DNA from: a virus
Lineage: Duplodnaviria; Heunggongvirae; Uroviricota; Caudoviricetes
DNA: 64,000 nt
Virus record (IMG/VR): IMGVR_UViG_3300042400_000593
Reading direction: 5' to 3' (one strand)
Positions within the stretch are counted from its first letter, which is position 1. Every line of letters starts with the position of its first letter. Position numbers and translations under genes: made by a program. Under the pieces are notes generated by a model that made no database searches, was not told the origin of the DNA, and saw only the letters and a list, made by a program, of their open reading frames with translations. Positions 434 to 42,222 of this stretch are shown piece by piece.

Positions 434-673
434 TTAAACATTGTTTAATCCGATTCTAGCATATCCTAGTGACGCGTTAAGTTCACGACGACCTTCACGG
501 TTGTCTACCTTGTTCTCTAAGATAATAAGATTATGTTGTAATTTTTGAAGATATAGCTTACCATTGCGTTCCAATCTGTCAGCCGGATAGTTTTTAATTC
601 TGTCCATATACCGCTCAATCTCGTCTTTTTTGAGCTGGATTCTATGCTCAAGATTCTCTTTAGTTTTTTTCAT
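434..673 (-). CDS. hypothetical protein (79 aa, charged, coiled-coil-like)
   Basis: ORF track; tightly packed with neighbours; no recognisable motif. Confidence 0.35.
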   Translation of the reverse strand: MKKTKENLEHRIQLKKDEIERYMDRIKNYPADRLERNGKLYLQKLQHNLIILENKVDNREGRRELNASLGYARIGLNNV

Positions 674-1109
674 TGTAAGCCTCTTTATGAAATTCTTGAC
701 AATCGTTAACTGCAGACTTCAATGCTTCTGCATAGTTTAATGTTTGTTGCTCGGACATTATAGTAGACTGCTGATATTTAAGATAACCATTAAACCACAA
801 ATTCCATGTCATTTTAATACGATGCTGAAACCCGTTAAGAAAGCTCAATGTTTCGTATGCAATACTGCTTAAAAACGAATTTTTAATTTTGTATGTGTTT
901 GAAACATCAAATGGTCTATCCCAGTACGCAGTTTTTTGCGTTGTAAATGTAGTTACAGTAATCATATTAAGGTCATCTGCCTCGACCATAAACTCAATAT
1001 TGTCATCGTCGTTGCCGCATGTGCATTGAATTTTATACATTTTACTGTTACCCCAGTCACTTGTTTTCATAATGCCTACTGCTGGAATTTGTGGTTTTAA
1101 GTCTTTCAT
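660..1109 (-). CDS. hypothetical protein (149 aa)
   Basis: ORF track; Cys cluster CTCGNDDD; start 8 nt after the folE stop. Confidence 0.45.
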   Translation of the reverse strand: MKDLKPQIPAVGIMKTSDWGNSKMYKIQCTCGNDDDNIEFMVEADDLNMITVTTFTTQKTAYWDRPFDVSNTYKIKNSFLSSIAYETLSFLNGFQHRIKMTWNLWFNGYLKYQQSTIMSEQQTLNYAEALKSAVNDCQEFHKEAYNEKN

Positions 1110-1117
1110 AACTCTCC

Positions 1118-1795
1118 TTATTTGTTTACAATACTCATAAATTCTGCACGAGTAGTTGGATCGTTTTTAAATGCACCACCTAACTTACTAGTAACAGTAG
1201 AACTGCCAGTATCTTCTACACCTCTTGCAGCAACACAATAATGTTTTGCATCAATAACTACTGCAATATTATCAGTGCCTAATATGTATTCTAATGCATG
1301 GAATACTTGTTCGGTTAATCTTTCTTGTACTTGCGGACGTTTTGCAAAGTATTCAACTACACGATTAATTTTGCTTAGTCCAAGTACAACCTCGTTTGGA
1401 ATATAACCAACTGTTGCAAAGCCGTCAATTACAACTCCGTGATGTTCACAATTACTTTGTATGTTTACATTTCTTTCCACAACAATTTCATTGTAGCCCA
1501 TTTTGTTTTTAATAGTAGTACACTTTGGAAAGTTTTCTTCTTTAAGTCCAAAATATATTTCATTTGTGTACATTTTAGCCATTCGATTTGGTGTTTCTGC
1601 TAAACTATCATCTGTTAAGTCCATTCCTAATGTTGACCATATTGTTGTAAATGCGTTTTCAATAATGTCAATTTTTGTTTTATTATCAACTACTAGGGCT
1701 GTATTATTAATCGGAGTTTCGACTCCTTTACTAATTAAATATTCTCTTACTCGTTTACCTAACGCTGGATCTGTTTTAGTTTTATCAAAGCTCAT
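1118..1795 (-). CDS. folE: GTP cyclohydrolase I (FolE type I)
   Basis: Motifs NCEHHGVVIDGFATVGYIP and HYCVAARGV correspond to the FolE zinc/active-site motifs (CEHH ... HxCMxxRGV); size 225 aa. Confidence 0.85.
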   Translation of the reverse strand: MSFDKTKTDPALGKRVREYLISKGVETPINNTALVVDNKTKIDIIENAFTTIWSTLGMDLTDDSLAETPNRMAKMYTNEIYFGLKEENFPKCTTIKNKMGYNEIVVERNVNIQSNCEHHGVVIDGFATVGYIPNEVVLGLSKINRVVEYFAKRPQVQERLTEQVFHALEYILGTDNIAVVIDAKHYCVAARGVEDTGSSTVTSKLGGAFKNDPTTRAEFMSIVNK

Positions 1796-2892: not shown

Positions 2893-3249
2893 TTAGTTAA
2901 ATCTGTCATTTTTTACCTCCGATCTTGCTATTTCTAAAAACATTTGATATTTTTCGTATGCTGCTTTAACAGTTGGATTAGAATCTCTAACATACATATC
3001 TTCATAATATTTTTTATTCCAGTCTTCGCACTTTTCAGCTTTGTCAATTAACTTTATAAAATCGTTCTCGTGTATTTTAACAGTTAATGACCGTGTAACG
3101 TTTGCTCTTTCGCTTGGTAGGTTTGATCTTGACCAATCTAACGAATAGTTATCACCTGCAGCATAAAATTGTTCAACGTCTATGCTTCGTATACCGTGTT
3201 TCTTAGCTATTGAATGTAGTTCCATTATTTCTTCCAGTAGTTTTCCCAT
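2893..3249 (-). CDS. hypothetical protein (118 aa)
   Basis: ORF track only. Confidence 0.4.
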   Translation of the reverse strand: MGKLLEEIMELHSIAKKHGIRSIDVEQFYAAGDNYSLDWSRSNLPSERANVTRSLTVKIHENDFIKLIDKAEKCEDWNKKYYEDMYVRDSNPTVKAAYEKYQMFLEIARSEVKNDRFN

Positions 3250-3755
3250 GGAAAGTCAATCCAAATCGGATCGTCTCGTTTATCAAATTCTTCAGCACAA
3301 TAATCAACATGTGCATTGCTAGCAGAATTATCAAACACTGTAGCAAATCTTACATTTTTATGCCAAACATCGTGTTTCCATCTTATAGAATCTGGTAAAC
3401 ATAATGATTGCCAATCTTCTTTAATCCAATCGAGTGTTGCACCCGAATCGTTAATATCGTCTACAATTAAAATGTTTTTAGCACGTCCGGTACTTGCTAG
3501 TTCGTCATCAGTAACACCAAATGCATCACAAGCCATCCATGCATTATGTTCATTGTCGTCTGGATGGTCACGTAAACTAACATGTAATGTTAGCATCTTA
3601 ACTCCGAGATACTGACTAAGTAAGTTAGCGGGGATAAGTCCCCCGCGTGTGATTCCGACAATGTAATCTGGTTTCCAATTAGCAGCTTGAACTTGGCGTG
3701 CTATCTCTAATGCGGCACCTTCTAATTGTGCCCAACTATATTTTACTACTTTCAT
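3225..3755 (-). CDS. xanthine-guanine phosphoribosyltransferase-like (Gpt-like, type I PRTase)
   Basis: YIVGITRGGLIPANLL and KNILIVDDINDSGATL align with E. coli Gpt GIIAVSRGGLVPGALL and FIVIDDLVDTGGTAV (PRPP-binding motif); 176 aa versus Gpt 152 aa. Confidence 0.7.
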   Translation of the reverse strand: MKVVKYSWAQLEGAALEIARQVQAANWKPDYIVGITRGGLIPANLLSQYLGVKMLTLHVSLRDHPDDNEHNAWMACDAFGVTDDELASTGRAKNILIVDDINDSGATLDWIKEDWQSLCLPDSIRWKHDVWHKNVRFATVFDNSASNAHVDYCAEEFDKRDDPIWIDFPWENYWKK

Positions 3756-4183
3756 TCGTCGTCCTTTGGTAACATGCTATCCTCATAGCAAATTGCATAA
3801 ATTGTTTTTAAATTTCCGTATGCTTTTTCTAAACCTGGATATTCGTCGCATAACTTCTTAAATGCATCCCATTCTGGAAACGCATCTATAAAAGGTCGTC
3901 CGTTCATTGCAGTTGAGTTACTCCAGCTACCGTTACTACTTAATGTACTACCTCCTATTCCGTTATATGCATAGTAATTACTTGTTAAATTAGTAGCTAT
4001 AGTATTATACCCGTATACACCATTAGAACCTGTGATAGTAATTGTATCACTTGCTGCTGCTGTTCCACTCATAACATTTGACGCCGTGTATGCCGATAAT
4101 GTACTTGCATCGAACGCCGGTATACGAACATGTGCATCTCCATCCATAGTAAATGTAATCGTATCTTTATTTGAATCTATCAT
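3752..4183 (-). CDS. hypothetical protein (143 aa, Ser/Thr/Gly/Asn-rich)
   Basis: ORF track; overlaps neighbours by 4 and 17 nt in operon fashion. Confidence 0.4.
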   Translation of the reverse strand: MIDSNKDTITFTMDGDAHVRIPAFDASTLSAYTASNVMSGTAAASDTITITGSNGVYGYNTIATNLTSNYYAYNGIGGSTLSSNGSWSNSTAMNGRPFIDAFPEWDAFKKLCDEYPGLEKAYGNLKTIYAICYEDSMLPKDDE

Positions 4184-5261
4184 ATAATTTCTCTGCGTTA
4201 AAAAACTCTTTTGTTAAATATTCTGCTTGGGTGTTTACATAATGCGCTATACTATCATAGTTTTCTATATAATAAATAATTTTATTACATAAATCATAAC
4301 TGTGCGTTTCGTAATTTTCGTAACTAATAGACCATTCTGACGGGTATTTAAAATGATACATATACATTTCTTTATAACTTAGTCTATCGGGTACCATTGG
4401 TATAGCACCAAGCAATGCGCCTTCGTAACAACTTATGCCTAGGGTTTCTTGTAAGTTAGCACTAAACACAATCTTTGCTTCGCTTAATAATTTATGATAT
4501 TCGTCTTTAGTTAGCTTCTCGTCTTGGCACACTACAAAATCGTATTGCGGTAATTGCATAGCTAATGATCTAAAAATATCAACTTGTTTTTCTGGAGCAA
4601 CCCTATGCGGAAACAATATTAGATCACGTTTTTCTGAATTTTTATAAGGAGTTAGCGTATCTTCTAAATACTCCATAGGCCAACCTGTTTTTATAATAGA
4701 CCCATCGTCGTATATTTCGTCCCAATCCTCGTCGTACCATGGATTTTCACTTGGATAACCATTTTGTATAACATTGTTAAAAAACATTCTTACGTGAAAC
4801 TCGGTAGCAAAATAGTTATGAGTGTATGCAGTGTACATACTTTTTTCAGCAAGTCTAACCCATGCGTCTTTAATATTACCTAAAAAGTCGTGTGGATCAT
4901 AACTTCCTGCGTGCCATAGACCGTGGAATGTCCAATTTAGATGTTCTAAATCGTTAATGTACTTTAATTGTATAATAGTAGGATTCCATGCATCAGTAAA
5001 TAAGAAATGATCATTAGGAGTAGTCCTGTGATAATTTTTTAAAAATCCAACAAGCTGAGAACTTTTCCATACGTTTGTGTCGACAAAGTTTAAAAATGCA
5101 CCCGGAGTTACATCGGTTGCGTTTTGTTCGCCGTCTATTTGAATTATGTTGTATTTGTCGTTAATATAATTGCTTAGTTGTTTAGGGATATGAGTGTGCC
5201 ATTGTCTAGTATATCTAGTATCTAATGGTTCTACAGGAAATATCCAAATAGTAGGTTTCAT
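4167..5261 (-). CDS. GT-B fold glycosyltransferase (GT4-like)
   Basis: C-terminal ...FSANLQETLGISCYEGALLGAIPMVPD... resembles the EX7E donor-binding motif region of GT4/GT1 retaining glycosyltransferases; 364 aa. Confidence 0.45.
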   Translation of the reverse strand: MKPTIWIFPVEPLDTRYTRQWHTHIPKQLSNYINDKYNIIQIDGEQNATDVTPGAFLNFVDTNVWKSSQLVGFLKNYHRTTPNDHFLFTDAWNPTIIQLKYINDLEHLNWTFHGLWHAGSYDPHDFLGNIKDAWVRLAEKSMYTAYTHNYFATEFHVRMFFNNVIQNGYPSENPWYDEDWDEIYDDGSIIKTGWPMEYLEDTLTPYKNSEKRDLILFPHRVAPEKQVDIFRSLAMQLPQYDFVVCQDEKLTKDEYHKLLSEAKIVFSANLQETLGISCYEGALLGAIPMVPDRLSYKEMYMYHFKYPSEWSISYENYETHSYDLCNKIIYYIENYDSIAHYVNTQAEYLTKEFFNAEKLYDRFK

Positions 5262-6115: not shown

Positions 6116-6493
6116 CTATTTCATTAGATGACCTGCGTCAGTTGGCTGGTATGTAACAATGCCATCAGATTCACCATCTTCAGATACACAGACTGTATAG
6201 TGCCTATCTCCATATTTAGGCAATAAATGATTAGTTAAAATATCACTAGCAATCATTTCGCATGATTTGTAATTTTGATCACCTGCAGTGATAAAATCAG
6301 TTAATGCCCATTTAACCAAAAAAAACTCTAATTCTCTATCTAAGTGATTAACAGAAATAGTTACTTCGATTTTAAAAATGTGACGATGTATATTTTCAAG
6401 AAATGCAATTTTAGAATCAATCAATCCTGCATTTGGGTAACAGTGCATACCTTCAAACTCTGTTCGAATTTTAATAAATGTTTGTAATTTCAT
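6116..6493 (-). CDS. QueD/6-pyruvoyl-tetrahydropterin synthase-like protein (divergent paralogue)
   Basis: TEFEGMHCYP ... NIHRHIFKIEV parallels the QueD FEAAHRL ... LHGHSFMVRLE arrangement, but the CxxxHGH box is degenerate; 125 aa. Confidence 0.45.
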   Translation of the reverse strand: MKLQTFIKIRTEFEGMHCYPNAGLIDSKIAFLENIHRHIFKIEVTISVNHLDRELEFFLVKWALTDFITAGDQNYKSCEMIASDILTNHLLPKYGDRHYTVCVSEDGESDGIVTYQPTDAGHLMK

Positions 6494-7017
6494 TTAATTA
6501 TCTTGTCGTCGTTATAGTCGGTCCAACTAGTAAACACATCTTCATTTTGCAAAACTTTTAAGTTATGTGTCCACACGCCGGGGTTAGTTGCGTTAAAATC
6601 TATGTCATCTAATTTAACCATTGTATTATAACTCCAATCTTTAATATTTGCAACCGGAAATCTAATTTGAGGAATAAAATTTTCATATGAACATAAATTA
6701 GTTTTATTATTAAAATCATTCATTGCTGTAACCGGAATATCTAATGAACAGTGTTTGCCTAATTTTAAAAAGTGCTCAATAATGTTATTCCAGTTGAGCC
6801 AGGTACCTGGTGTGTTTGGATTAAAACTGTGGTTTGCACCAAAGAAGATATGTGTAATATCTTCTTCAGTATCTAACCGGTGATGTATTGCTTCTGTAGT
6901 ATGAGCACCAACAACAAATAATGTTTTTAAACCATATGCTGGAGTATGCTCTACTTCGGTACCAACAAAAAACTTAGCAGTGTTAGTAGTTATATTGTTA
7001 TTATACTGTCTATTCAT
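6490..7017 (-). CDS. hypothetical protein (175 aa), translationally coupled to the DpdA-like gene
   Basis: Its start overlaps the upstream TGT-like ORF stop by 8 nt and its stop overlaps the QueD-like start; His-rich (HTTEAIHHRLD, ITHIFFGANH); no known motif recognised. Confidence 0.45.
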   Translation of the reverse strand: MNRQYNNNITTNTAKFFVGTEVEHTPAYGLKTLFVVGAHTTEAIHHRLDTEEDITHIFFGANHSFNPNTPGTWLNWNNIIEHFLKLGKHCSLDIPVTAMNDFNNKTNLCSYENFIPQIRFPVANIKDWSYNTMVKLDDIDFNATNPGVWTHNLKVLQNEDVFTSWTDYNDDKIIK

Positions 7018-8731
7018 CTTTAATGCTATCTTCTAGGGTAAGTAAAGTGTCTTCTTCTTCTTCAGAAAATTCAAATGCCGTCGGATCGACATTATCCTCA
7101 TCTATGTCGTTAGGATCTATATCTTCAAGTGTCCAAAACTCATTAAACTTTGTATCAGCATTGATTGTTTTCTTGCCACAATTACCACGTGTACCAGGAA
7201 TATCAATCCATAATTTGCTATATCTACTAATTAATTTCAATGCAGAACGCTTAGTTTTACTGCTAATGATTTTATCAATTATATCGCTAACATAAACTGG
7301 ATTAAATTTTTCATCAACTAACATATATGGCAAAATATTGTTATCAAATGTTTGATTTGCTCTTTGTACAGCATCAATATGACTCCATACATTATGCCCC
7401 ATTAAAATAGCGTAACTAAAACTATCCCAACTTGTTCTACCGACTTTGTTAATTTTATTCGTACTGCCCATAGTAATCCAATATTTAGGATCATTTAAGT
7501 ATAGTGGGTTTTTAAATAAGTCTTCATGATCAATGCCATCATTGTCTACTTCTGTCCAGTTAGGATCACCTGCACCGTAGATACAAATATCTTTTATTTG
7601 TACTTGATCAATAAGTGGACTTGGATTAAACACTTTAAAAATACCATCATCGATAACCGCGTCTTTAAACAGTCTAGTATCATATGCGTATTTTTTATTA
7701 TCAACACTCGGGACCATTCGATACACCCATTTAGATCTATCTTCTAATTCTGTAGTAATGTAAACCTGACCATTTGCTGTAGCCAAAAACGGACTAGCAC
7801 AATCATAACTAATAGTAAAGCTAGGATTAACATATTTACGAACTGCTCGTTGAATTATAGTTAGTAAACATGCCCATTCTAATTTACTAGTTCCTAAGAA
7901 ATGCATCCAGTCGTGCTGGCCTTCTTGAAGCATGTTATCAAATTTTAAACCAATAATGCGTTTAAGTACTAACTCGGCATCGCACATGTTTTGTCCACCC
8001 ATTGCCCAGCCATTAAATGCTTTATCACCGTAGATCTTAGTATCGCAAAACTTTTTCATACTTTGATACCATTTTTCTGCATCTTTGTGTGTTTCGCCTT
8101 GTAATACATTTAAGAATTTACAAGCACCTGTGCGATTTTGAATAAAGTATTCATTGTTAATAAATGTACCTTTAACTGCATCTTTGTAATTTCTAATACC
8201 TGTTGCTTTTCTACCAGCCGGCATACGTGCTACCCACGCAGGAATATCAAGACACATACCGTAATCCATTAACTCGTCCATCCATCGCAGTACTTGTTCA
8301 CGTTTCTTTTGTGCTTTAGGACAAGTAGGATCTTTCCAATCAGCTGGCCATACACCTTTCCCTATTTGGAAGCCTCCAGAGTCACCTAACACCCAACTAG
8401 TACTTCTATCTCTATTACGGAACATGTCTTCACTTTCGTCAAACTTATCTAAATCTAAGTTTGCATGTCCAGCTGAGTACAAGCACCATTTATAATAAAA
8501 TTCACCTTTTTCAGGTTCTAAGTAGTTAAGTCCCTCTACACCTGCTTTAAATGATGTTGGAATACGTAACGGATCAACATAATTACCATAACGTTGTTTA
8601 CCAACAAATGTTGAGTAAAACCCTGACGTTGCAGGCAAAAACACGGCATAATCCTGTTGTGTTGCTGTTAAGTTTCTATTCATGTTTTTTCCATATATAT
8701 GTTTTATTTCCGCAGTCCCAGATTCTATCAT
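7010..8731 (-). CDS. dpdA: tRNA-guanine-transglycosylase-family DNA transglycosylase (DpdA-like)
   Basis: VLGDSGGFQ matches the TGT catalytic-Asp motif LxDSGGFQ; NGWAMGG matches G(F/Y)AIGG; MHFLGTS matches YLMGVGTP. 573 aa. An alternative start is Met17 (complement 8681-8683), 2 nt after the upstream stop. Confidence 0.75.
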   Translation of the reverse strand: MIESGTAEIKHIYGKNMNRNLTATQQDYAVFLPATSGFYSTFVGKQRYGNYVDPLRIPTSFKAGVEGLNYLEPEKGEFYYKWCLYSAGHANLDLDKFDESEDMFRNRDRSTSWVLGDSGGFQIGKGVWPADWKDPTCPKAQKKREQVLRWMDELMDYGMCLDIPAWVARMPAGRKATGIRNYKDAVKGTFINNEYFIQNRTGACKFLNVLQGETHKDAEKWYQSMKKFCDTKIYGDKAFNGWAMGGQNMCDAELVLKRIIGLKFDNMLQEGQHDWMHFLGTSKLEWACLLTIIQRAVRKYVNPSFTISYDCASPFLATANGQVYITTELEDRSKWVYRMVPSVDNKKYAYDTRLFKDAVIDDGIFKVFNPSPLIDQVQIKDICIYGAGDPNWTEVDNDGIDHEDLFKNPLYLNDPKYWITMGSTNKINKVGRTSWDSFSYAILMGHNVWSHIDAVQRANQTFDNNILPYMLVDEKFNPVYVSDIIDKIISSKTKRSALKLISRYSKLWIDIPGTRGNCGKKTINADTKFNEFWTLEDIDPNDIDEDNVDPTAFEFSEEEEDTLLTLEDSIKDE

Positions 8732-10301
8732 AATTATTATTTTTCATATTTTCCCATTCGGTTTTTGATAAATCAACAACTTCTAATAATTTAGATAATT
8801 TATGTTTTTGAAATTTAATTCTACTCATTATGCGAGACGGATCACTATTTAAAAAATACCAGTAATTTGGATCAGTATCGTGTATAAATTCAAAACCAAG
8901 TTGTGTATATAAATTACCAGTTGACCATCTTCTATCTGCATATGATACAATACTACTCGGATTATGTAATTTTATAAAATGTTTAATTAATTTACTACCT
9001 GCACCAACTACTGTAGTATTCAATTTATTACAAAAGCGAATCAATTCCCACTGTGCAGCACTTGTATATCTAGCTTTTGCAAATGTAGCTAACGATACTA
9101 ATTCACCATCAAACATTGCGCCAATATTTACACTTGACGAGCAATCACCTTGAATATGATTTTCATTTAAGAAGTTACGTTTATCTGTAGTTGATACGTC
9201 TATTATACTACAGTTTCGTGCAAAAATCTTGGTTGATTTATTCAATTTATGCAATAATTTTGATTTTATAATATCAGTTTGCGTGTTCCATTCATAATCC
9301 CATATTTGTATAAGTTGAATATTTTGCTGTTCACATGCAACAGTCTTTGATACATGGTATTGTTTAGATTTTCCGTGAAGTTCGCTATGCCAAAAACTTC
9401 CATTAAACTCAATTGCAAGATTAAAATCCGGTAAAAAAATGTCAAGCTCACGTGGTGCAATGATTGTTCTATCATTTCTAATTATGTTTTGAGTGTAATT
9501 AGATAAAAAGTCAACTAAATTAGTTTCTCCGGCCGAAACATTAAATCGTTGTATATCAATACCAGCTGCAACCAATCTTTTAAGTATCGGCGTTGGAGAA
9601 CACCCTAGTTCTTCTGCAATTTGACTACATGGTTTCTTTAATGTTACATGCTGTTCTATAAGAAACTCAAGATTGTGCAATTTATCAATATTCTCATTAG
9701 TTAAATGAATATGTTTATTTGACGAAACACCAAACTTTTCAATACAAGTATTGTGACGTTTATCAATTACGTCATCCCAATTTCTATTAAGAGATGACTG
9801 ACTAATTTTTAACTTAATCATATCATTTTTAGCTGCATTATCCACACCGTACTTTTCTAAATTTCGTTGTTTGATTTTTTCTTTAATTTCTAAAGATTTA
9901 AATACGTTATCAACACCGTACTTTTCCATTGTAGCAGCATTTCGAGTTTCTCTAATAGTTTCATTGTGCATAGGATGACCGCCATACTTAGCTTGATTAG
10001 TTTGAGATTTTTTTAATAATATTGCAGGATCAGTGCCCATGCATTTAGCAGAGCACCATTCCGAATATGATTTTAAACTTTTAACAAACTTAGTAGATAG
10101 CTTTCCGCACCGGGTACAGGTTGGTACGTCAATCGTGTCATTAATAACGTGCCACAATCGTTGATGCGGAGTAGCAGTTTCGCTTAGAAAACTTGTAATG
10201 TCAATAAACTCAATAACATGTTCATCTAATATTGTACGTTTAGCAAATAATTCATTAGCAGTTGATTGCAATTGTATAGAATTATTCAACAGCTTTGTCA
10301 T
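8676..10301 (-). CDS. multidomain protein: N-terminal Cys cluster, three 22-aa K-Y-G-V-D-N repeats, Vsr/DUF559-like endonuclease core, C-terminal GNAT-like region
   Basis: ELDIFLPDFNLAIEFNGSFWHSELHG resembles the Vsr / EDxHD nuclease core (..AIE.DG.FWH..); C-terminal TTVVGAGSKL...LYTQLGFEF is GNAT-like; repeats KYGGHP../KYGVDNVF../KYGVDNAA../KFGVSS.. Confidence 0.4.
   Translation of the reverse strand: MTKLLNNSIQLQSTANELFAKRTILDEHVIEFIDITSFLSETATPHQRLWHVINDTIDVPTCTRCGKLSTKFVKSLKSYSEWCSAKCMGTDPAILLKKSQTNQAKYGGHPMHNETIRETRNAATMEKYGVDNVFKSLEIKEKIKQRNLEKYGVDNAAKNDMIKLKISQSSLNRNWDDVIDKRHNTCIEKFGVSSNKHIHLTNENIDKLHNLEFLIEQHVTLKKPCSQIAEELGCSPTPILKRLVAAGIDIQRFNVSAGETNLVDFLSNYTQNIIRNDRTIIAPRELDIFLPDFNLAIEFNGSFWHSELHGKSKQYHVSKTVACEQQNIQLIQIWDYEWNTQTDIIKSKLLHKLNKSTKIFARNCSIIDVSTTDKRNFLNENHIQGDCSSSVNIGAMFDGELVSLATFAKARYTSAAQWELIRFCNKLNTTVVGAGSKLIKHFIKLHNPSSIVSYADRRWSTGNLYTQLGFEFIHDTDPNYWYFLNSDPSRIMSRIKFQKHKLSKLLEVVDLSKTEWENMKNNNYDRIWDCGNKTYIWKKHE
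9701..9989 (-). repeat. in-frame 22-aa K-[YF]-G-V-x-N repeats (3-4 copies) inside the 541-aa gene
   Basis: KYGGHPMHNETIRETRNAATME / KYGVDNVFKSLEIKEKIKQRNLE / KYGVDNAAKNDMIKLKISQSSL / KFGVSSNKHIHL. Confidence 0.5.
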
Positions 10302-11476: not shown

Positions 11477-14137
11477 TTAATCAAAATCAAATAAATTGTT
11501 AAATGTGTTTTTGTCAGATGTGTTAACTAGTTTCCAGTTAAGAATTCCGATTAAGTTATCTAACTTGTTATCAATAATTGTTTGTTCCATTTCATTATGA
11601 TCAAACGGTAAGTCTTTAAACCATTGCGGTAATCGTAGTTCGTCTACTGGATATGCAACACTTGTAAACCCCAACGGATTTGGTTTAAGTTTACATACAA
11701 TTACTTTTGCACCGTCTGTAATAGACATCGAATATTTGTCACTGTACATACGTTTTAAAGTATTCCAGTTTATACTTGCTCTTACATGCCCGGGCATATT
11801 AGTTTTACCTTGTTTATCTTCTTTTGTAGCATATGAAGTAATACTGTTAGCACGTTTAGGTGAACCTTTTTCCCACCCAGGTCTAGCTTTAAATAGTAAC
11901 CTAAATTCTGTAATGTAATCTAATACAGTATCTTCACTTTCGCCTGCTAGAACCATTTGTAACACTTGTGATAAAAAATCTTGAATAAATTCCGGTGTAT
12001 CACTACGTTTTAAATCTAATCCCATAGCTTTAATTTCACCATTTTTACCATTAGTGTCTTTACGTTTACCTTCTTTATCGTATACTAATACTGCATAACG
12101 CTTTTTAGTAATAAACAACGATTTACTTCCGACGATCTCACGTCCGGCTTTAATAACTTCGCCACGCGATTTAGGACAATGGAATGCATCTAACATAAAC
12201 TGCTGGAATGTGCTATTAACTTGATCACTAATTTGATCATATAACTGAACAATAGTATCTTTAGACCATGGTAAACTACCATTATCGATATCACGTTTGA
12301 GTGTATTGTATGCACTAAAGTAACAGGAGTCAGTATCACCGTAAATAATAGCTTTACCTGTGTGATTATAATCACCGGTAATGATTTCATTTACTTTTGC
12401 AGCCATATGTTTAGCAATTTGGCGACCTACTAGCGTAGTAGATTGTCCAATGCGCTTATCAAAGAACCTACAACCTGGATTAAGAATAGCACCGTATAAA
12501 CTATTTAGGTTAATCTTCTTAACTAACTGTCTTTTATCCCAGTATTCTTCTTCAATTTTATTACCTGCGTTAATAGCTTCTTTTAGTTTTTTCTGCATAT
12601 CTTTACGTTCTGCATACCATCGTTTAAGTAAACCAGGAATAACTCCTTCTACTTCAACGGAAAAGATAGTACCATTAGCAGATAACACCCATGGTTGATT
12701 GCTTTCAAACACTAACCTGTATACTTCGGCAGCACTTAGTACATCTGTATCACCATTTTCCCAGTCAACTACTATATCAGTACCTATTTCTTCATTCATA
12801 ACAGCAGTATATTCAAGAGTACCAAATAATCCTTCCCATGCAGCGGCAAATGATTTACCTTTTGCTAGTTGCATAGAAATAAATTCATCAGTTGCAACAG
12901 GTCTTAACTGACCTACAATAGTCTCCGGACCCATATTTAATGCTCTAATAGCACTAGGATACAGAGAGTTGATATCTAGTGATCCGACCCAGTCATGAAT
13001 TCCTTCTTTTGGATATGCAACATACGCACCTGCAGCTTGAATAGGATCTTCTCTACGTCTATTAGGTACAACAAATCCTCTGTTATGTGCTTCGTTAATA
13101 ATAGCTTGTTCTGTTACAGCAACAGCACCCATAGTAGTTTGTAGTAATACTGTATTTTCATGTGCAAGTGTGTTAGCTAAGTCAATAAATTTTAGTTTTT
13201 TGTCTAAACTATCTAATAGCATGGTATCTTGTCTATTATATTCAATAAATGTTTTAAAGTCATTGTTATATAATTGATCAAGGGTGCCTTCGTATTGTGT
13301 TTTACGGTCGCCTAGTTCATATTCTGCAATAGCATCGAGTCTAAAACTATGTCTTTCTTCATATGTGTACTTTTGATATAGCTGTAAGCTATCTAAATGT
13401 ACACGTCCTACAAAGTCATATGTTACTGATGCTTTACCGTATTTTTCATATTCACGTCTTTTTGGTAATTGATCGAATAAGCAGAACCTACGTGTATCAT
13501 CTTTTGATAATACTTTAGTAACACGATTAACTGTATATGGTATATCAAATCCTTCACTATTCCAACCACTTAAAATGTCAGCATCTTCTATTAAATTAAG
13601 AAATGTGTCTAATAATTCAGCTTCAGTTTTAAATAAAAACGTATTAGGAAACTCTTTTACTTGTTCTTCTGCTTGCTCCATAGTTAATGTCTTTGGAGGA
13701 ATAGCTAAACAGATAAGTGTTTCTAACCATTGTAAGTGTACAGCAATCGCAGTAATGGGCATAAACGCATCATCGGGCGATGCATAACCACGTTCTGGAT
13801 CAAAGTCGACCTCGATATCAAAAAACGCAACGTTTAGTTTAGGCGCGTCGTGGTTAAGATAGTGTTCTGATAAACATGCAAATATTGGATTAATATCTGC
13901 TTCAAATGTTTTACTTGTGCTATGTATAGAAAGTTCTTTTCTATACTCTTTTGTATTTCTACAAACAATTTTTGATACGGGGTCTCTGTAGATTGATTGA
14001 TATTTCCCTTTCGAGTCTTTATAATATAATGTGTGCTTTACGGGAATGTCTTTAAACTCCCGTTCGCCTTTTGAGTTTCTTTCTACAATCTTAATAACAT
14101 CGTTATTGCGATCAAAGTATCCATCTATATAACTCAT
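11477..14137 (-). CDS. family B DNA polymerase (T4 gp43-like) with 3'-5' exonuclease domain
   Basis: Exo I FFDIEVDFDPE; motif A LDINSLYPSAI; motif C IYGDTDSCYFS; 886 aa. Confidence 0.95.
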   Translation of the reverse strand: MSYIDGYFDRNNDVIKIVERNSKGEREFKDIPVKHTLYYKDSKGKYQSIYRDPVSKIVCRNTKEYRKELSIHSTSKTFEADINPIFACLSEHYLNHDAPKLNVAFFDIEVDFDPERGYASPDDAFMPITAIAVHLQWLETLICLAIPPKTLTMEQAEEQVKEFPNTFLFKTEAELLDTFLNLIEDADILSGWNSEGFDIPYTVNRVTKVLSKDDTRRFCLFDQLPKRREYEKYGKASVTYDFVGRVHLDSLQLYQKYTYEERHSFRLDAIAEYELGDRKTQYEGTLDQLYNNDFKTFIEYNRQDTMLLDSLDKKLKFIDLANTLAHENTVLLQTTMGAVAVTEQAIINEAHNRGFVVPNRRREDPIQAAGAYVAYPKEGIHDWVGSLDINSLYPSAIRALNMGPETIVGQLRPVATDEFISMQLAKGKSFAAAWEGLFGTLEYTAVMNEEIGTDIVVDWENGDTDVLSAAEVYRLVFESNQPWVLSANGTIFSVEVEGVIPGLLKRWYAERKDMQKKLKEAINAGNKIEEEYWDKRQLVKKINLNSLYGAILNPGCRFFDKRIGQSTTLVGRQIAKHMAAKVNEIITGDYNHTGKAIIYGDTDSCYFSAYNTLKRDIDNGSLPWSKDTIVQLYDQISDQVNSTFQQFMLDAFHCPKSRGEVIKAGREIVGSKSLFITKKRYAVLVYDKEGKRKDTNGKNGEIKAMGLDLKRSDTPEFIQDFLSQVLQMVLAGESEDTVLDYITEFRLLFKARPGWEKGSPKRANSITSYATKEDKQGKTNMPGHVRASINWNTLKRMYSDKYSMSITDGAKVIVCKLKPNPLGFTSVAYPVDELRLPQWFKDLPFDHNEMEQTIIDNKLDNLIGILNWKLVNTSDKNTFNNLFDFD

Positions 14138-14781: not shown

Positions 14782-17355
14782 TTATTGTACGCCGTTTAAT
14801 CTTGTAGACATATCAGCTACTGCTTTCTGTGCTTCAGGATTTGAACTTTTACCTACATCTGCCATTAATGTTCTAAGTTGAGCCATTAATGCTGCCATTT
14901 CTGCATCAGAAGGATCTGCTGCCGGAGTTACAGGTGGAGTTGGAGGTGTTGGAGGAGTTACTGGAGTAGTACCGCCGCCATCGTGATGTGGTTTATGAAT
15001 ATGTGGTTCAGGATTATGTATTGGATCTGGTTTAGGACCTTGTCCACTATGATATGCGTCCCATGCAGCCATACCGCCTGCACCTGCTGCTGCGCCACCT
15101 AAGAAGCTAGCAGTTTTTGGGTTTTTGTTAACAATATCGCCTGCACCGTGTGCAATTTTATCTGCTCTAGTCAATGCTGTCGGACCTGCAGAACTTGCTC
15201 TAGACAAAGCTGGCTCACCTTTAGCACCACGTACTAAGTTTTTACCTGCGTTCCAAGCACCTTTTCCAATTTTTGCTAATGCATCACCAATGCCTTCGTT
15301 AGCTAATTCGTCCATAAATGCAGGATCTAATCCACTTTCAATTAATGATAATCTTGCACCTAATGCTCTAATAGATTCAGCTACAGGTTGCGGAGCTGCA
15401 TTAGTACCTGGGAATTTAGGATCTGGTTGGAATTTAGGGAACACTCTGTCATATGCCGCTTGTGTTGCTGGACCGTAAATACCGTCGACTTTAAGATGTT
15501 CACCGTTAGCATTTAACAATTCTTGCCATTTCATAATTTCAGGATTACCTTGTTTATGTACTGGACCGTGCGGATGTGGTTTAGGATGTGGTTTTGGTCC
15601 AGGTGGTGGCATTGGGCCTTGTCCGTTATCACCTGCTAATGCACTATACCCAGCCATGCCTGCAGCTAATCCTGCAATAGCAGCATTTCTTTTACCACCT
15701 TTCTCTGCAGCTTTTTCACCTTTGCCTGCAAAATTATAGTTTTTACTTTTGCCAAGTGCATTTACGTCCATACCGCCTTGTGCGTAAGTTGCATCATTAG
15801 CTGCGCCTCTTGCACCATATGATGCGTCATTTGCTGCTGTTCTTTCTAATCCGCCTGCTGCGGCACCTGCGTCATTAGCTGCTGCTTTTCCTGCATCTGC
15901 TGCAGCATTGCTGCCCCATGCTGGGCCTGCAGCTGGTTTACCTAAATGACTTACATCACCGGCACCTTGTGAAGTTGCACCTTTAAGTGCGCCCCAACCC
16001 ATAGACGCGTCATTAGCTGCTGCTTTTCCTAACGCGCTTGCATCATTAGCTGCTACTTTGCTAAGTATTTTGCTACCTACTGTACCCCAGTCTTCGGCTA
16101 CTTGTGGATTGTTAATACGTTCCAATGTATCACGCATAGCTGCAATTGATTCAGCTACTGTTAATTGTTTCATTTCTGTACCTTCTTTAATGCCAAATTT
16201 TGCTTGTGCTGCTTTAGTTTTAGGCCCCATAATTCCGTCAACGCCGTCGTGGTTAGGACCGCTTGTACCTAAGTCAGCACCTTTAGCTTTTAATTGTTGT
16301 TGCAATGCCATGATATGATTAGTACCAGCATTACCTGCAGGATGCGGACCTACTGGAGTTTGTTGGGTACCTAAAGTATGTGCATTAGCTGCATCGACTG
16401 CTTGTCCTGCAATATATCGTTTACCTACTACACCTGCAGCACCTGCAAGACCTTTAGCTGCACCGCCCGGAGTTACAAAACTTCCAGCTAAGTCACCACC
16501 ACCGTATAACCATGGACTTCTTTCTTCGGCTGCTTTATTAGCAGCAAGTTCCCCTGCTAGTTCGTCTTTATATTTGGTTCCTTTAACTAAACTTTTAACC
16601 CCGGCATTAATATTGCTACCAGTACCCCATGTAACACCGTTCCATACACCGCGTCCAAGGTCTCCTGCGTCGCTTGCAAGATCTTCATTTAACTGTTCAT
16701 AACCGAAGCTGTCAAGTAATGCATTAGCCATACCGTATGATTCTTTAAGTCCAGCAGGTGCATTTGCTAGTCCAGCACTTGCATCTTTCATACTAGTTTG
16801 AATGTTGTTTAGTGTATTAGCAATATTTGGAGGAGTAATAGCATTGGCAGCTGCTGCATTTGCACCAGGTGATCCTAAGCTATTAGCTGCTAAGTTTTTA
16901 TCAGCGCGTTTTTTACGTAATTCTAAAATTTTATTAAACAAGTCCATCATTTGTTTAATTTTATCATGTAACGCATCTGCATCACCTGAAATTTGAGAAC
17001 TTTGACTAACTAAGTCCGCGTTTGCTTTTTTAAAGGTGTCTTCGTTGTCAAACCAACCTGCCTGCGGCAATCTAGCGTTTTTAGGCAATAGACCAGCTGC
17101 TGATAATTTTTGCGCAATTTCAAATGGTACTTCATCGTCTACTTCGCCTTCGTTTGAAATATAATTTCCATTTACTGGATCAACTAATCCTTCTAAACCG
17201 TTTTCTTTAGCTAATTGTGCTAATTTTGGTATTCTTACCTTATCATCTTGTTCATACCCTGATGTTACTGCAATGATTGCAGATAGTGTTAACCCTTCAG
17301 CCAACATTCCATTATTAATGTTGTCTAGTTTATTCATTAAATCTCTAAAATTCAT
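14782..17355 (-). CDS. Ala/Gly-rich low-complexity protein with two peptidoglycan-binding (PG_binding_1-like) modules
   Basis: LQQQLKAKGADLG...DGIMGPKTKAAQAKFG and WQELLNANGEHLKVDGIYGPATQAAYDRVF match the PG-binding DG.xGxxT motif; six AANDA(S/G/T) repeats; PKPHPKPHPHGP and TPPTPPTPP tracts; 857 aa. Confidence 0.65.
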   Translation of the reverse strand: MNFRDLMNKLDNINNGMLAEGLTLSAIIAVTSGYEQDDKVRIPKLAQLAKENGLEGLVDPVNGNYISNEGEVDDEVPFEIAQKLSAAGLLPKNARLPQAGWFDNEDTFKKANADLVSQSSQISGDADALHDKIKQMMDLFNKILELRKKRADKNLAANSLGSPGANAAAANAITPPNIANTLNNIQTSMKDASAGLANAPAGLKESYGMANALLDSFGYEQLNEDLASDAGDLGRGVWNGVTWGTGSNINAGVKSLVKGTKYKDELAGELAANKAAEERSPWLYGGGDLAGSFVTPGGAAKGLAGAAGVVGKRYIAGQAVDAANAHTLGTQQTPVGPHPAGNAGTNHIMALQQQLKAKGADLGTSGPNHDGVDGIMGPKTKAAQAKFGIKEGTEMKQLTVAESIAAMRDTLERINNPQVAEDWGTVGSKILSKVAANDASALGKAAANDASMGWGALKGATSQGAGDVSHLGKPAAGPAWGSNAAADAGKAAANDAGAAAGGLERTAANDASYGARGAANDATYAQGGMDVNALGKSKNYNFAGKGEKAAEKGGKRNAAIAGLAAGMAGYSALAGDNGQGPMPPPGPKPHPKPHPHGPVHKQGNPEIMKWQELLNANGEHLKVDGIYGPATQAAYDRVFPKFQPDPKFPGTNAAPQPVAESIRALGARLSLIESGLDPAFMDELANEGIGDALAKIGKGAWNAGKNLVRGAKGEPALSRASSAGPTALTRADKIAHGAGDIVNKNPKTASFLGGAAAGAGGMAAWDAYHSGQGPKPDPIHNPEPHIHKPHHDGGGTTPVTPPTPPTPPVTPAADPSDAEMAALMAQLRTLMADVGKSSNPEAQKAVADMSTRLNGVQ
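15795..16065 (-). repeat. in-frame AANDA(S/G/T) peptide repeats (about 6 copies) inside the 857-aa gene
   Basis: KVAANDASALGKAAANDASMG ... KAAANDAGAAAGG..TAANDASYGARGAANDATYAQ. Confidence 0.6.
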
Positions 17356-40658: not shown

Positions 40659-41192
40659 ATGAAATGGGAAATAGATAAAGAGTTTCATTTTGAAATGGGA
40701 CACAGAGTATGGGCACAAAAATTAAATCATGTTGAGTTAAGTATTTCAACTGACTGTGCCTGCAAGCATTTACACGGACACAGCTATTCAATTAAAGTAT
40801 TTTTAGGTTCTGATACGTTAGATCATTCAGAAATGGTTACAGACTTTAAGAATTTAAACTTTATGAAACAATTTGTAGATGATGTGTTAGATCATAAGTT
40901 TATGATTGATATCAATGATCCAAACTTTAAGTTAATTACAGGTAACGAATGGAGCAAAGCCAAACACCCATTTGCAAACTTTACTAACTTAGGAAGTTAC
41001 AACTGGGTTGGATTAACTGAAGGTGAACAATTACATTATAACAGTTTTGTACTAGTAGATTTTGTACCAACTAGTGAAAACATTTGTAAGTATTTGTTTG
41101 AATATGCTCAATCACGTATAGGTGATGTAGCAAAGGTTACTGCAGTTGAGCTGTGGGAAACTCGCAAAAGCCATTGTAGATATACAGGATAA
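40659..41192 (+). CDS. queD: 6-carboxy-5,6,7,8-tetrahydropterin synthase (QueD)
   Basis: EMGHRV ... DCACKHLHGHSY is the QueD Cx3HGH zinc/active-site box (E. coli EAAHRL ... CGRLHGHSF); 177 aa with a C-terminal extension. Confidence 0.75.
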   Translation: MKWEIDKEFHFEMGHRVWAQKLNHVELSISTDCACKHLHGHSYSIKVFLGSDTLDHSEMVTDFKNLNFMKQFVDDVLDHKFMIDINDPNFKLITGNEWSKAKHPFANFTNLGSYNWVGLTEGEQLHYNSFVLVDFVPTSENICKYLFEYAQSRIGDVAKVTAVELWETRKSHCRYTG

Positions 41193-41222
41193 GAAAAAAG
41201 GCAGCGTAAGCTGCCTTTTTTA
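41193..41222. terminator. bidirectional rho-independent terminator between queD (+) and uvdE (-)
   Basis: gaaaaaaGGCAGCgtaaGCTGCCtttttt: perfect 6-bp GC-rich stem, GTAA loop, flanking A-run and T-run. Confidence 0.7.
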
Positions 41223-41226
41223 TTGA

Positions 41227-42222
41227 TTACATAAATTCTTCTTTAAACTGGTCAAACAGTTCAAATGATGCTAGGTTCTTAGCTTTAGATTCCGCCATCA
41301 TGTTACCCCATTCAAGATGTGTTAGTGCCCATCTGTTAATATCTTTATTTGTATAAAAATCACTATGAGCTCGTAATTTACTTTTAGAAGTAGATTCAAG
41401 TAATGTTTCCATAGTTGTCATACCAGTACGAGGTATTAATTCTGATTTTGATTGACTGTAATGGAATGTTGGTCTAACACCTTGCCAACTTTCAAGTACA
41501 CCTTGTATTCTAGGATCAGATGCTTTTATATATTCGCCTGTTTTAATAAAATGATGATGTATATCAAGCACGATACCAACCTTGTCTTTCAAAGCTAACA
41601 ACTCATCTAACCCTTGTTGGTACTCGTCGTTCTCTAATGTTAAGCAGTTACGCAGTTCTGGACTCATTCGTTGCCATGCAGCATCAAAACCTGCTATACC
41701 ACGTCTACCACTAACATGTACATTAATCTTAAAATCTAATTTAGACTGACCGAATCCCATAAATCTTGCCATGTCAGCGTGATATTCAAGTTCTTCCAAA
41801 GATCTAGTAATGACATCATCTCTGTCGCTAGCAATGCACACAAACTGACCAGGATGAAAACTGAGACGAATATTAGAATCTTTAGCATATTGTCCAATCT
41901 TAGATAAGTTTTGTTCGATAATTTTGATTCTTGATGGTTCTTGCCAAAAGCTGCGATATAAATCATGAGTATACATTGGAATAACATCAGACCCGATACG
42001 AACCATACGTAAATGTTCATCTAAAGTACCTACCTTTCTAATAAGATTAGAAGTTGCTGTGAGATTTTGCATAGCAATTTCCCACAGCTTTTTTTCTGCT
42101 ACTTGTTTAGATTGACGACCTAGCCATGCAACTGTAGTTGCTCCCATGTTTAATTCTTTAACATTTTCAAACCCGGTTTTAGTGCTGTCAACATACTTGC
42201 AAGCAAAGCCGATTTTTTTCAC
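41227..42222 (-). CDS. uvsE: UV DNA damage endonuclease (UvdE/UvsE family)
   Basis: Blocks KIGFACKY, VRIGSDVIPM, IRLSFHPGQF, INVHVSG, LTLENDE, VLDIHHHF and PTFHYSQSKSE are collinear with the B. subtilis UvsE blocks RFGFVS, YRFSSSIVPL, LRTSFHPNQF, INIHIGG, MTLENDD, VFDFHHF and PKVHLSSPKSE. Confidence 0.75.
   Translation of the reverse strand: MKKIGFACKYVDSTKTGFENVKELNMGATTVAWLGRQSKQVAEKKLWEIAMQNLTATSNLIRKVGTLDEHLRMVRIGSDVIPMYTHDLYRSFWQEPSRIKIIEQNLSKIGQYAKDSNIRLSFHPGQFVCIASDRDDVITRSLEELEYHADMARFMGFGQSKLDFKINVHVSGRRGIAGFDAAWQRMSPELRNCLTLENDEYQQGLDELLALKDKVGIVLDIHHHFIKTGEYIKASDPRIQGVLESWQGVRPTFHYSQSKSELIPRTGMTTMETLLESTSKSKLRAHSDFYTNKDINRWALTHLEWGNMMAESKAKNLASFELFDQFKEEFM

Follow-up and report, generated by a model that had tools for sequence, protein, structure and literature searches.

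We begin by considering the described systems of 7-deazaguanine DNA modification that are closest to the one studied here. The enzymes FolE, QueD and QueE make 7-carboxy-7-deazaguanine (CDG), with FolE catalysing the first step of 7-deazaguanine synthesis. DpdL, a QueD paralogue with the signature LxxxHRHxF, has been proposed to decarboxylate CDG towards 2'-deoxy-7-deazaguanine (dDG); reconstitution of dDG from DpdL and DpdA, including the DpdL and DpdA of Acidovorax phage ACP17, failed, and missing enzymes were suggested (Cui et al. 2023, PMC10516641). Here we examine a 64,000-nucleotide (nt) stretch of a Caudoviricetes virus (IMG/VR record IMGVR_UViG_3300042400_000593), which as a whole we call the window. 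Its minus strand carries genes for a DpdA-like protein with the tRNA-guanine transglycosylase (TGT) fold (a 573-amino-acid (aa) open reading frame (ORF), 7010..8731), for a 175-aa protein of an undescribed, phage-only family that we call X (6490..7017), and for a 125-aa DpdL (6116..6493). The reading that we favour, and to which we give about an even chance, places X, as an accessory, in the branch of 7-deazaguanine DNA modification that does without QueC (the "DpdL" branch).

The dDG system of Cellulophaga phage phiST (DpdA3 - CGPG_00066 - DpdL; PMC10516641) resembles the locus in several ways: FolE, QueD and QueE without QueC, a DpdL with the LxxxHRHxF signature, a TGT-like gene nearby, and, wedged in between DpdL and the transglycosylase gene, a small ORF whose ends overlap. 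The DpdA3 of phiST, however, has only 259 aa and, beyond weak motif matches, is not detectably related to the 573-aa protein of the window; the wedged ORF is a P-loop kinase and no homologue of X, and the cluster contains neither a GT4-like glycosyltransferase (GT) gene nor a phosphoribosyltransferase (PRT) gene. Phage ACP17 shares with the window homologues of X (27% identity), GT (34%), DpdL (39%) and FolE (60%), and its X is likewise translationally coupled to the DpdA gene; the DpdA of ACP17 differs in being of the VH7D/KVP40 type ("DpdA2"-like) instead of the 573-aa family, and X lies upstream of it, not downstream. The preQ0/preQ1-type system of Vibrio phage 2.275.O has the same TGT-fold family as the window beside PolB and clamp genes, together with FolE and QueE, but systems of this type (2.275.O, and VH7D with its DpdA2) use QueC, QueF and Gat and are without DpdL, GT and X.

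We examine the three genes of the window first. They are present on the minus strand where an earlier note, made from the letters of this DNA, had placed them, and both of the start/stop overlaps that it described are seen. The TGT-like ORF ends in ...AAA GAT GAA TAG with its stop at 7010-7012, and the ATG of X at 7017 lies inside this ORF, giving an overlap of 8 nt (ATGAATAG); X ends in ...AAA TGA, and the ATG of DpdL at 6493 overlaps this stop by 4 nt (ATGA). The stoichiometric co-expression that the note read from this coupling is a weak deduction, as the overlaps are not kept in relatives and start/stop overlaps occur at about 11 of the 18 same-strand junctions between 0.4 and 14 kb of the window (including GT/p143/PRT/p118). 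Because overlapping junctions are this genome's default, those of TGT, X and DpdL tell us little and carry no special signal. A perfect sigma-70 consensus (TTGACA-17-TATAAT, 12/12) lies at 6056-6028 on the minus strand, in the 176-nt gap just downstream of DpdL, and may mark the end of a TGT-X-DpdL transcription unit, setting it apart from the genes after it; the overall count of promoter-like sites is not above that of shuffled controls.

The 125-aa protein, described in the note as a degenerate QueD paralogue, is a QueD/T-fold paralogue that already has a name, DpdL, the proposed CDG decarboxylase. It matches PHROG 17812 (E 1e-19), and blastp gives 32% identity to the DpdL of phiST (E 2e-16) and 39% to that of ACP17 (E 3e-20); a hidden Markov model (HMM) of the DpdL family from the loci matches phiST DpdL at 1.4e-23. 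The DpdL signature LxxxHRHxF is present as LENIHRHIF and the QueD motif CxxxHGH is not found in this protein. The pattern [LIMV]xxxH[RK]HxF occurs in 67/67 members of the family taken from the loci.

The 573-aa ORF gives no match in Pfam (including TGT, PF01702), PHROG or NCBIfam, and its family profile finds no match in the PDB. Its AlphaFold2 (AF2) model is of moderate confidence (pLDDT 72), and the first nine Foldseek ranks against the PDB are all Z. mobilis TGT, QTRT1 or QTRT2 (E 2e-7 to 4.5e-4, probability 1.0, target-normalised TM about 0.5). In 23 diverse homologues the motifs DSGGFQ, LQG, HFLG and (S/Y)DCA are invariant, as are the aspartates D117 (in GDSGGFQ), D162 and D310 (in SYDCASP), where D117 and D310 are what we take to be the counterparts of D102 and D280 of Z. 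mobilis TGT. Modelled fold and motifs thus support a TGT/DpdA-like enzyme, in line with the DpdA-like transglycosylase that the note had proposed. Aligned by hhalign with ACP17 DpdA, the family reaches 47% probability, with these motifs lining up; with phiST DpdA3 it reaches 3.7% and is not detectably DpdA3. From these comparisons the family is best treated as a separate DpdA-like subfamily that is not clearly any of DpdA1-4, and the family consensus suggests that the true start of the window protein is probably M17, at position 8683.

At least 7,671 homologue clusters belong to this transglycosylase family, and among cultured phages it occurs in the PA5oct-like phages, in Phosso and in Vibrio phage 2.275.O. 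The DNA of PA5oct resists restriction enzymes with G in their sites, and a modified G is suspected (PMC12191111). We infer from fold, motifs, context and this resistance that the 573-aa enzyme swaps guanine in DNA for a 7-deazaguanine product. Since it is found with preQ-type (QueC/QueF/Gat) as well as with DpdL-type pathways, the family looks like an unnamed DpdA subfamily with a switch of substrate.

X is a genuine, very widespread, phage-only and fast-evolving protein, whose homologues form 4,510 clusters at 90% identity and come down to 761 representatives at 50%. Bacterial and archaeal contigs, taken at one genome per species, give seven matches to X, all on contigs of metagenome-assembled genomes, and module genes are present wherever the contig is long enough. 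The note had found no motif that it could assign, and remote homology searches of Pfam, PHROG, NCBIfam and PDB sequences likewise place neither X nor its profile in any family, nor do they place its relatives from PA5oct, from ACP17, from the tailed subgroup or from the remote group. In a comparison of 147 diverse members, conservation is seen at G19, E21, E23, T25, T32-L33-F34, G37, H56, G60, N62, S64, K135, D137, D138, N145, G147, W149, T163, W165, Y168 and D171, and no cysteine is conserved. Only one of the nine histidines of X, H56, is conserved (in 94% of these members), with H24, H45, H46, H63, H82, H89 and H151 variable; the clusters of histidine that had looked conserved in the note are a trait of this sequence and not of the family.

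The AF2 model of X is confident (pLDDT 90.7, pTM 0.86) and has six parallel strands and three main helices. Active sites in alpha/beta folds lie at the C-terminal ends of the strands, and most of the conserved polar residues of X are predicted at or next to these ends. Foldseek with the model returns nothing significant: the matches are generic alpha/beta proteins, no TGT fold is among them and QueE is not recovered. Neither does hhalign find homology of X to QueE, DpdL, FolE, GT, PRT or TGT.

These searches bear on one alternative, in which X is a cluster-less descendant of QueE that keeps a pocket for 6-carboxytetrahydropterin (CPH4) or CDG and serves either as a QueE pseudo-enzyme partner or regulator, or as the true CDG decarboxylase. 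We consider it quite improbable. X differs from QueE, the radical S-adenosylmethionine (SAM) CDG synthase, in having no iron-sulphur cysteines (no Cx(2-16)CxxC in 73 locus-derived members), no SAM-binding GGE-type motif and no profile similarity (hhalign probabilities of 0.2% and 4.2% against QueE profiles, and no QueE recovered from the PDB by the X profile). In no locus is X adjacent to QueE, and X is missing from phiST, which makes dDG. A hand-made match between the N-terminal motifs of X and QueE (F-x3-[QE]-x-E...G...F) was rejected as post hoc, with hhalign favouring a different and also insignificant register. The link of X to QueE is a lead only, and that X descends from QueE and binds CDG is speculative.

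A subgroup of X (P0172, P0176, P0179, P0186, P0201, P0202, P0210, P0221, P0249, P0265; loci L105-L121 and L126) carries a disordered acidic and proline-rich tail of 100-180 aa. The tail has two conserved motifs, ...LGLDP...S.LKPE... and a terminal AAxAYAEGxxxDPLG...KKPKAKK, and in these phages GT lies just upstream of X.

We turn our attention to the genes that surround X in metagenomic phages. Two sets of 80 IMG/VR loci, one closest to the window X and one closest to the divergent long-tailed subgroup, give 142 unique loci after de-duplication, and the denominators of the three neighbour counts that come first are the loci whose contig permits the test. All sampled X loci show the same module. 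DpdL lies within 4.5 kb downstream of X on the same strand in 91/91 loci, a TGT-family gene lies upstream of X in 85/88, and a GT4-like glycosyltransferase accompanies X in all 53 of the 53 loci having both flanks. The order TGT-X-DpdL is kept in relatives (TGT upstream in 78/78, DpdL downstream in 77/77), and linkage within 50 nt is found for about a third of them, 26/78 for TGT-X and about 24/77 for X-DpdL, by rough estimates of the starts. In the tailed subgroup GT is shifted upstream of X and the TGT gene is several kb off, with the adjacency of X and DpdL kept; in locus L088, too, it outlasts a move of the GT or TGT gene. Homologues confined to unrelated contexts, the outcome that the note had named as damaging to its proposal, are not what we see: those of X are found only in 7-deazaguanine contexts.

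Among cultured phages, tblastn finds X only in the PA5oct-like Pseudomonas jumbo phages and in ACP17. No other cultured phage gives a match. Among those without one are Atu_ph07 and the Rak2-like phages, which are related jumbo phages; searches with the TGT-like protein and with DpdL do not hit them either. In 50,697 phage records X never occurs outside genomes that contain DpdL and GT, and X is confined to genomes with this DpdL + GT type of 7-deazaguanine module. The gene sets of the cultured phages are nested, with DpdL alone in phiST, MA9V-3, RHph_I1_18 and Bakedbeans, DpdL with GT in BUCT-ZZ01 and Phosso, and DpdL with GT and X in the window clade, PA5oct and ACP17.

The cluster of ACP17 reads QueD-FolE-X-DpdA-GT-DpdL-QueE, in a phage of a lineage different from that of the window, and its X overlaps both the stop of FolE (TAATG) and the start of DpdA (ATGA). 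The family alignment and the ATG of TAATG place the start of ACP17 X at 83050 (record 83050-83535; locus L002, 8001-8486). The deposited protein (ASD50402, 132 aa) is annotated from 83137, 29 codons late, and is without the conserved FFxGxEVEHT segment that contains the ExE motif. In PA5oct the genes TGT-GT-DpdL-PRT-QueE (TGT, GT and DpdL being EST35_0316, 0317 and 0318) lie beside the polymerase, with X (EST35_0364) 30 kb away from the TGT gene. In all, X neighbours DpdL, GT or DpdA in three different arrangements, spread over two lineages of phage. Vibrio phage 2.275.O serves as a natural control: the transglycosylase family of the window lies there next to PolB (locus L185, 11905-13695; HMM E 2e-68) among QueF, a YhhQ-like transporter, QueC, Gat, FolE and QueE, with no X, DpdL or GT. 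What X accompanies is therefore the DpdL branch rather than the transglycosylase.

A family of 143-155-aa proteins, possibly remote relatives of X, is encoded by the Xanthomonas phages X1 (L186, 3994-4425) and BUDD (L188, 201-632) and by Burkholderia phage BCSR5 (L187, 7998-8465). These proteins sit in DpdL+GT+DpdA clusters, with the stop overlapping the start of GT. Against X they give an hhalign probability of 59.5% (E 9e-5) over X residues 18-94, the N-terminal half, and share the motifs G.EVE, TLF, H.Y..N/D and VT(L/V)(D/E). Judging by this alignment, the family may be a truncated or very divergent X.

Other candidates for X did not hold. The 177-aa "glycosylase" of Phosso (L101, 6816-7349), in the slot between the clamp gene and DpdL, is ruled out by an hhalign probability of 0.1%; it has a GVG-type segment that resembles a helix-hairpin-helix. 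Fusions of X to DpdL in Bakedbeans gp176 and in a 293-aa protein of MA9V-3 are ruled out as well, for their N-terminal parts are unrelated to X, that of MA9V-3 looking HNH-like. CGPG_00066 of phiST (L104, 16382-16861), wedged between DpdA3 and DpdL, reaches 0.3% by hhalign and is a P-loop kinase (Pfam AAA_18). It is reported to have no homologue in other 7-deazaguanine phages (Cui et al. 2023, PMC10516641); we find one, 32% identical and in the corresponding place, in Chryseobacterium phage MA9V-3 (L100, 12342-12812). CGPG_00066 may be a second, non-homologous wedged accessory gene.

The next question is whether X could be a new partner of DpdA, as the note had suggested with DpdB as the analogue. 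X would then be a non-catalytic or DNA-handling subunit of the transglycosylase, comparable to DpdB or QTRT2. Bacterial DpdA-DpdB and eukaryotic QTRT1-QTRT2 do offer a precedent, a transglycosylase paired with a dedicated partner from an adjacent gene. X overlaps the stop of the TGT gene in the window and the start of an unrelated DpdA in ACP17, the TGT-X overlap or close linkage is kept in the 26 of 78 loci given above, and the basic KKPKAKK-like end of the tailed subfamily could touch DNA or a partner. Set against these points, overlaps are the default of this genome, the X of PA5oct lies far from the TGT gene, and 2.275.O, Phosso and most of the DpdL-centred loci described below have this transglycosylase family without X; nor does X co-evolve with TGT beyond what phylogeny explains. 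Unlike DpdB and QTRT2, X has no Pfam match at all (no ParB-like or ATPase domain) and no TGT fold, and its distribution does not follow that of the transglycosylase. The partner is thus disfavoured, and we regard it as unlikely. The note's other suggestion, a base-tailoring enzyme, may still hold.

Several observations weigh against the reading of X as an accessory of the DpdL branch, and we gather them here. We sampled IMG/VR once more with DpdL at the centre, which gives 51 loci with adequate flanks: 34 of them have TGT, DpdL and GT without X within 10 kb, and 15 have X. Some contigs without X are long, such as IMGVR_UViG_3300027969_000039 with 303 kb. In the loci without X the median distance from the TGT stop to DpdL is about 200 nt, and versions with and without X occur in both transglycosylase backgrounds; because the X of PA5oct is unlinked, absence of X from the whole of these metagenomic genomes is unproven. 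BUCT-ZZ01 and Phosso have DpdL and GT, and tblastn finds no X in either. The only phage in which dDG has been measured, phiST, has no X and no GT, and carries its P-loop kinase at the equivalent position. Most X loci belong to one phage lineage, so that much of the synteny is inheritance. In a mirror-tree comparison the distances of X track those of PolB (r 0.73), and the partial correlations with TGT, DpdL and GT are about zero; as a measure of co-evolution of X with any of the three the comparison is uninformative, since all of them track PolB.

Taken further, such observations would make X a hitch-hiker, a lineage-specific gene of the replication neighbourhood (for example an anti-defence gene or a replication accessory) with no role in base modification. 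Vertical inheritance of X with PolB, its dispensability in many related clusters and its unlinked position in PA5oct all favour this. The place of X between FolE and DpdA in ACP17, a phage of a different lineage, speaks against it, as do the restriction of X to DpdL+GT genomes among the phage records and the recurrence of its possible remote homologues in DpdL+GT clusters, and we give this alternative only a small chance. Clearly, X does not belong to the fixed core of the module; it is probably an optional helper rather than a core enzyme. Because many TGT-DpdL-GT clusters have no X nearby, X probably adds or improves a step and is not indispensable.

Returning to X as an accessory of the DpdL branch, the steps of the pathway may be laid out as follows. 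FolE, QueD and QueE produce CDG, as is established for these families, which DpdL and its companions would process in the step proposed in the literature, and the TGT-fold DpdA-like enzyme would exchange guanine in DNA for the product derived from CDG. X would be a small alpha/beta protein, either an enzyme or a subunit that binds a ligand, and its active site would be acidic; the conserved acidic and polar residues E21, E23, H56, N62, S64, D137 and D138 lie in the model at or beside the C-terminal ends of the parallel strands. Working together with DpdL and the GT4-like glycosyltransferase, it may act on the base derived from CDG or help to decorate that base further, and would not be an obligate subunit of the transglycosylase.

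The glycosyltransferase itself (364 aa, 4167..5261, minus strand) is GT4-like, of the GT-B type, and travels with DpdL and X; two small ORFs lie between it and DpdL. It is 34% identical (E 1e-59) to a 342-aa protein of ACP17 (its GT, ASD50404) located between DpdA and DpdL. Its relatives match Pfam Glycos_transf_1 and Glyco_trans_1_4, and it has an EX7E-like motif and weak PDB matches to PglH, WbaZ and GlgM. Homologues in relatives lie at 9754-10782 of L002, 9352-10518 of L003, 10632-11693 of L087 and 7800-8891 of L101. A GT4-like enzyme stands beside DpdL in the window clade, ACP17, PA5oct, BUCT-ZZ01, Phosso, X1 and BCSR5, often with the PRT as well. In locus L088, GFO/IDH/MocA and alcohol dehydrogenase (ADH)-type oxidoreductases lie beside GT. 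The GT, and the oxidoreductases of L088, hint at a sugar-decorated 7-deazaguanine. It is speculative whether the constancy of the GT4-like enzyme means that the final base in these phages is perhaps other than plain dDG.

Downstream of GT on the same strand are a 143-aa conserved protein (3752..4183) that overlaps its neighbours, GT and PRT, at both ends, and the PRT itself (3225..3755), which is xanthine/guanine PRT-like (Pfam PF00156, E 2e-16). Homologues of the 143-aa protein hold the same position in many related loci, and it has no assigned family. The PRT recurs in related loci and its homologue in the BUCT-ZZ01 cluster is annotated as xanthine-guanine PRT; that it recycles the guanine freed by transglycosylation is a speculative idea. 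In the literature on these systems we found no discussion of X, GT or PRT, and the DpdL paper mentions neither GT nor PRT.

The 7-deazaguanine genes within the window are FolE, QueD and the TGT-like gene. FolE, GTP cyclohydrolase I, lies at 1118..1795 on the minus strand (Pfam PF01227, E 2e-58), followed by a 149-aa conserved protein (660..1109, minus strand) that occupies the interval between FolE and QueE in relatives (by synteny in L004, L007 and many loci). Synteny with a contig of 310 kb that is 86% identical places QueE just outside the window, on its left, and QueE is seen in syntenic relatives. After QueE most related loci encode a conserved protein of about 144-200 aa (L004, 17874-18308, and homologues; L087, 14759-15370), which is not QueD and has a weak PHROG match to "virion structural protein". 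The canonical QueD (6-pyruvoyltetrahydropterin synthase, PTPS) is unlinked from the module, at 40659..41192 on the plus strand (Pfam PF01242, E 2e-28; tblastn with ZZ01 QueD, E 9e-11), and stands beside a gene for a UvdE-type UV endonuclease that runs on the other strand (both within 40659-42222). Annotation shows no QueC-like gene close to the module, either in the window or in the related loci, where QueC was not explicitly searched and the genome of more than 300 kb is only partly covered.

The run of minus-strand genes that contains the module fills the first 14 kb of the window, which is AT-rich (about 33% GC). It also contains PolB (11477-14137) and a clamp-like ORF. The nearest PolB of a cultured phage is that of the Sinorhizobium jumbo phage Phosso, at 50% identity, and the window is therefore from an uncultured jumbo phage. 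Two homing endonuclease genes on the minus strand, one of HNH/DUF7487 type (8676-10301) and one of GIY-YIG type (1810-2724), flank or interrupt the module; the relatives L004 and L007 have other endonucleases or none at these places. Beyond PolB, an 857-aa ORF rich in alanine, glycine and proline (14782-17355, minus strand) lies where the GC content is locally raised (about 41% against 33%).

The module is a DpdL-type phage 7-deazaguanine modification system with a distinct DpdA-like subfamily and the undescribed accessory family X. Of the branches of 7-deazaguanine modification in phages, that of DpdL is understood least, and X, the GT4-like glycosyltransferase and the guanine-type PRT, which travel with DpdL in this lineage, are candidates for the factors missing from the failed reconstitution. 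The signs that X is optional lessen the weight of this list. PA5oct and ACP17, the latter with the start codon of X corrected, provide culturable systems for the candidates. For the transglycosylases, the comparison shows a large unnamed TGT-fold family across both preQ-type and DpdL-type pathways. As for X, its homologue clusters are unannotated and number in the thousands, and a functional assignment would bring annotation to a considerable part of viral dark matter. Tentatively, and as a possibility that we ourselves regard with considerable doubt, DpdL, GT and (where present) X may together build an undescribed 7-deazaguanine base, such as a glycosylated or further-tailored derivative of CDG in place of plain dDG, with X as a new type of enzyme, possibly a QueE derivative that has lost the cluster, adding a tailoring step that separates phages with X from those without. 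If this is true, the carriers of an undescribed base would include uncultured jumbo phages of aquatic habitats, a very abundant clade, as well as the culturable PA5oct and ACP17.

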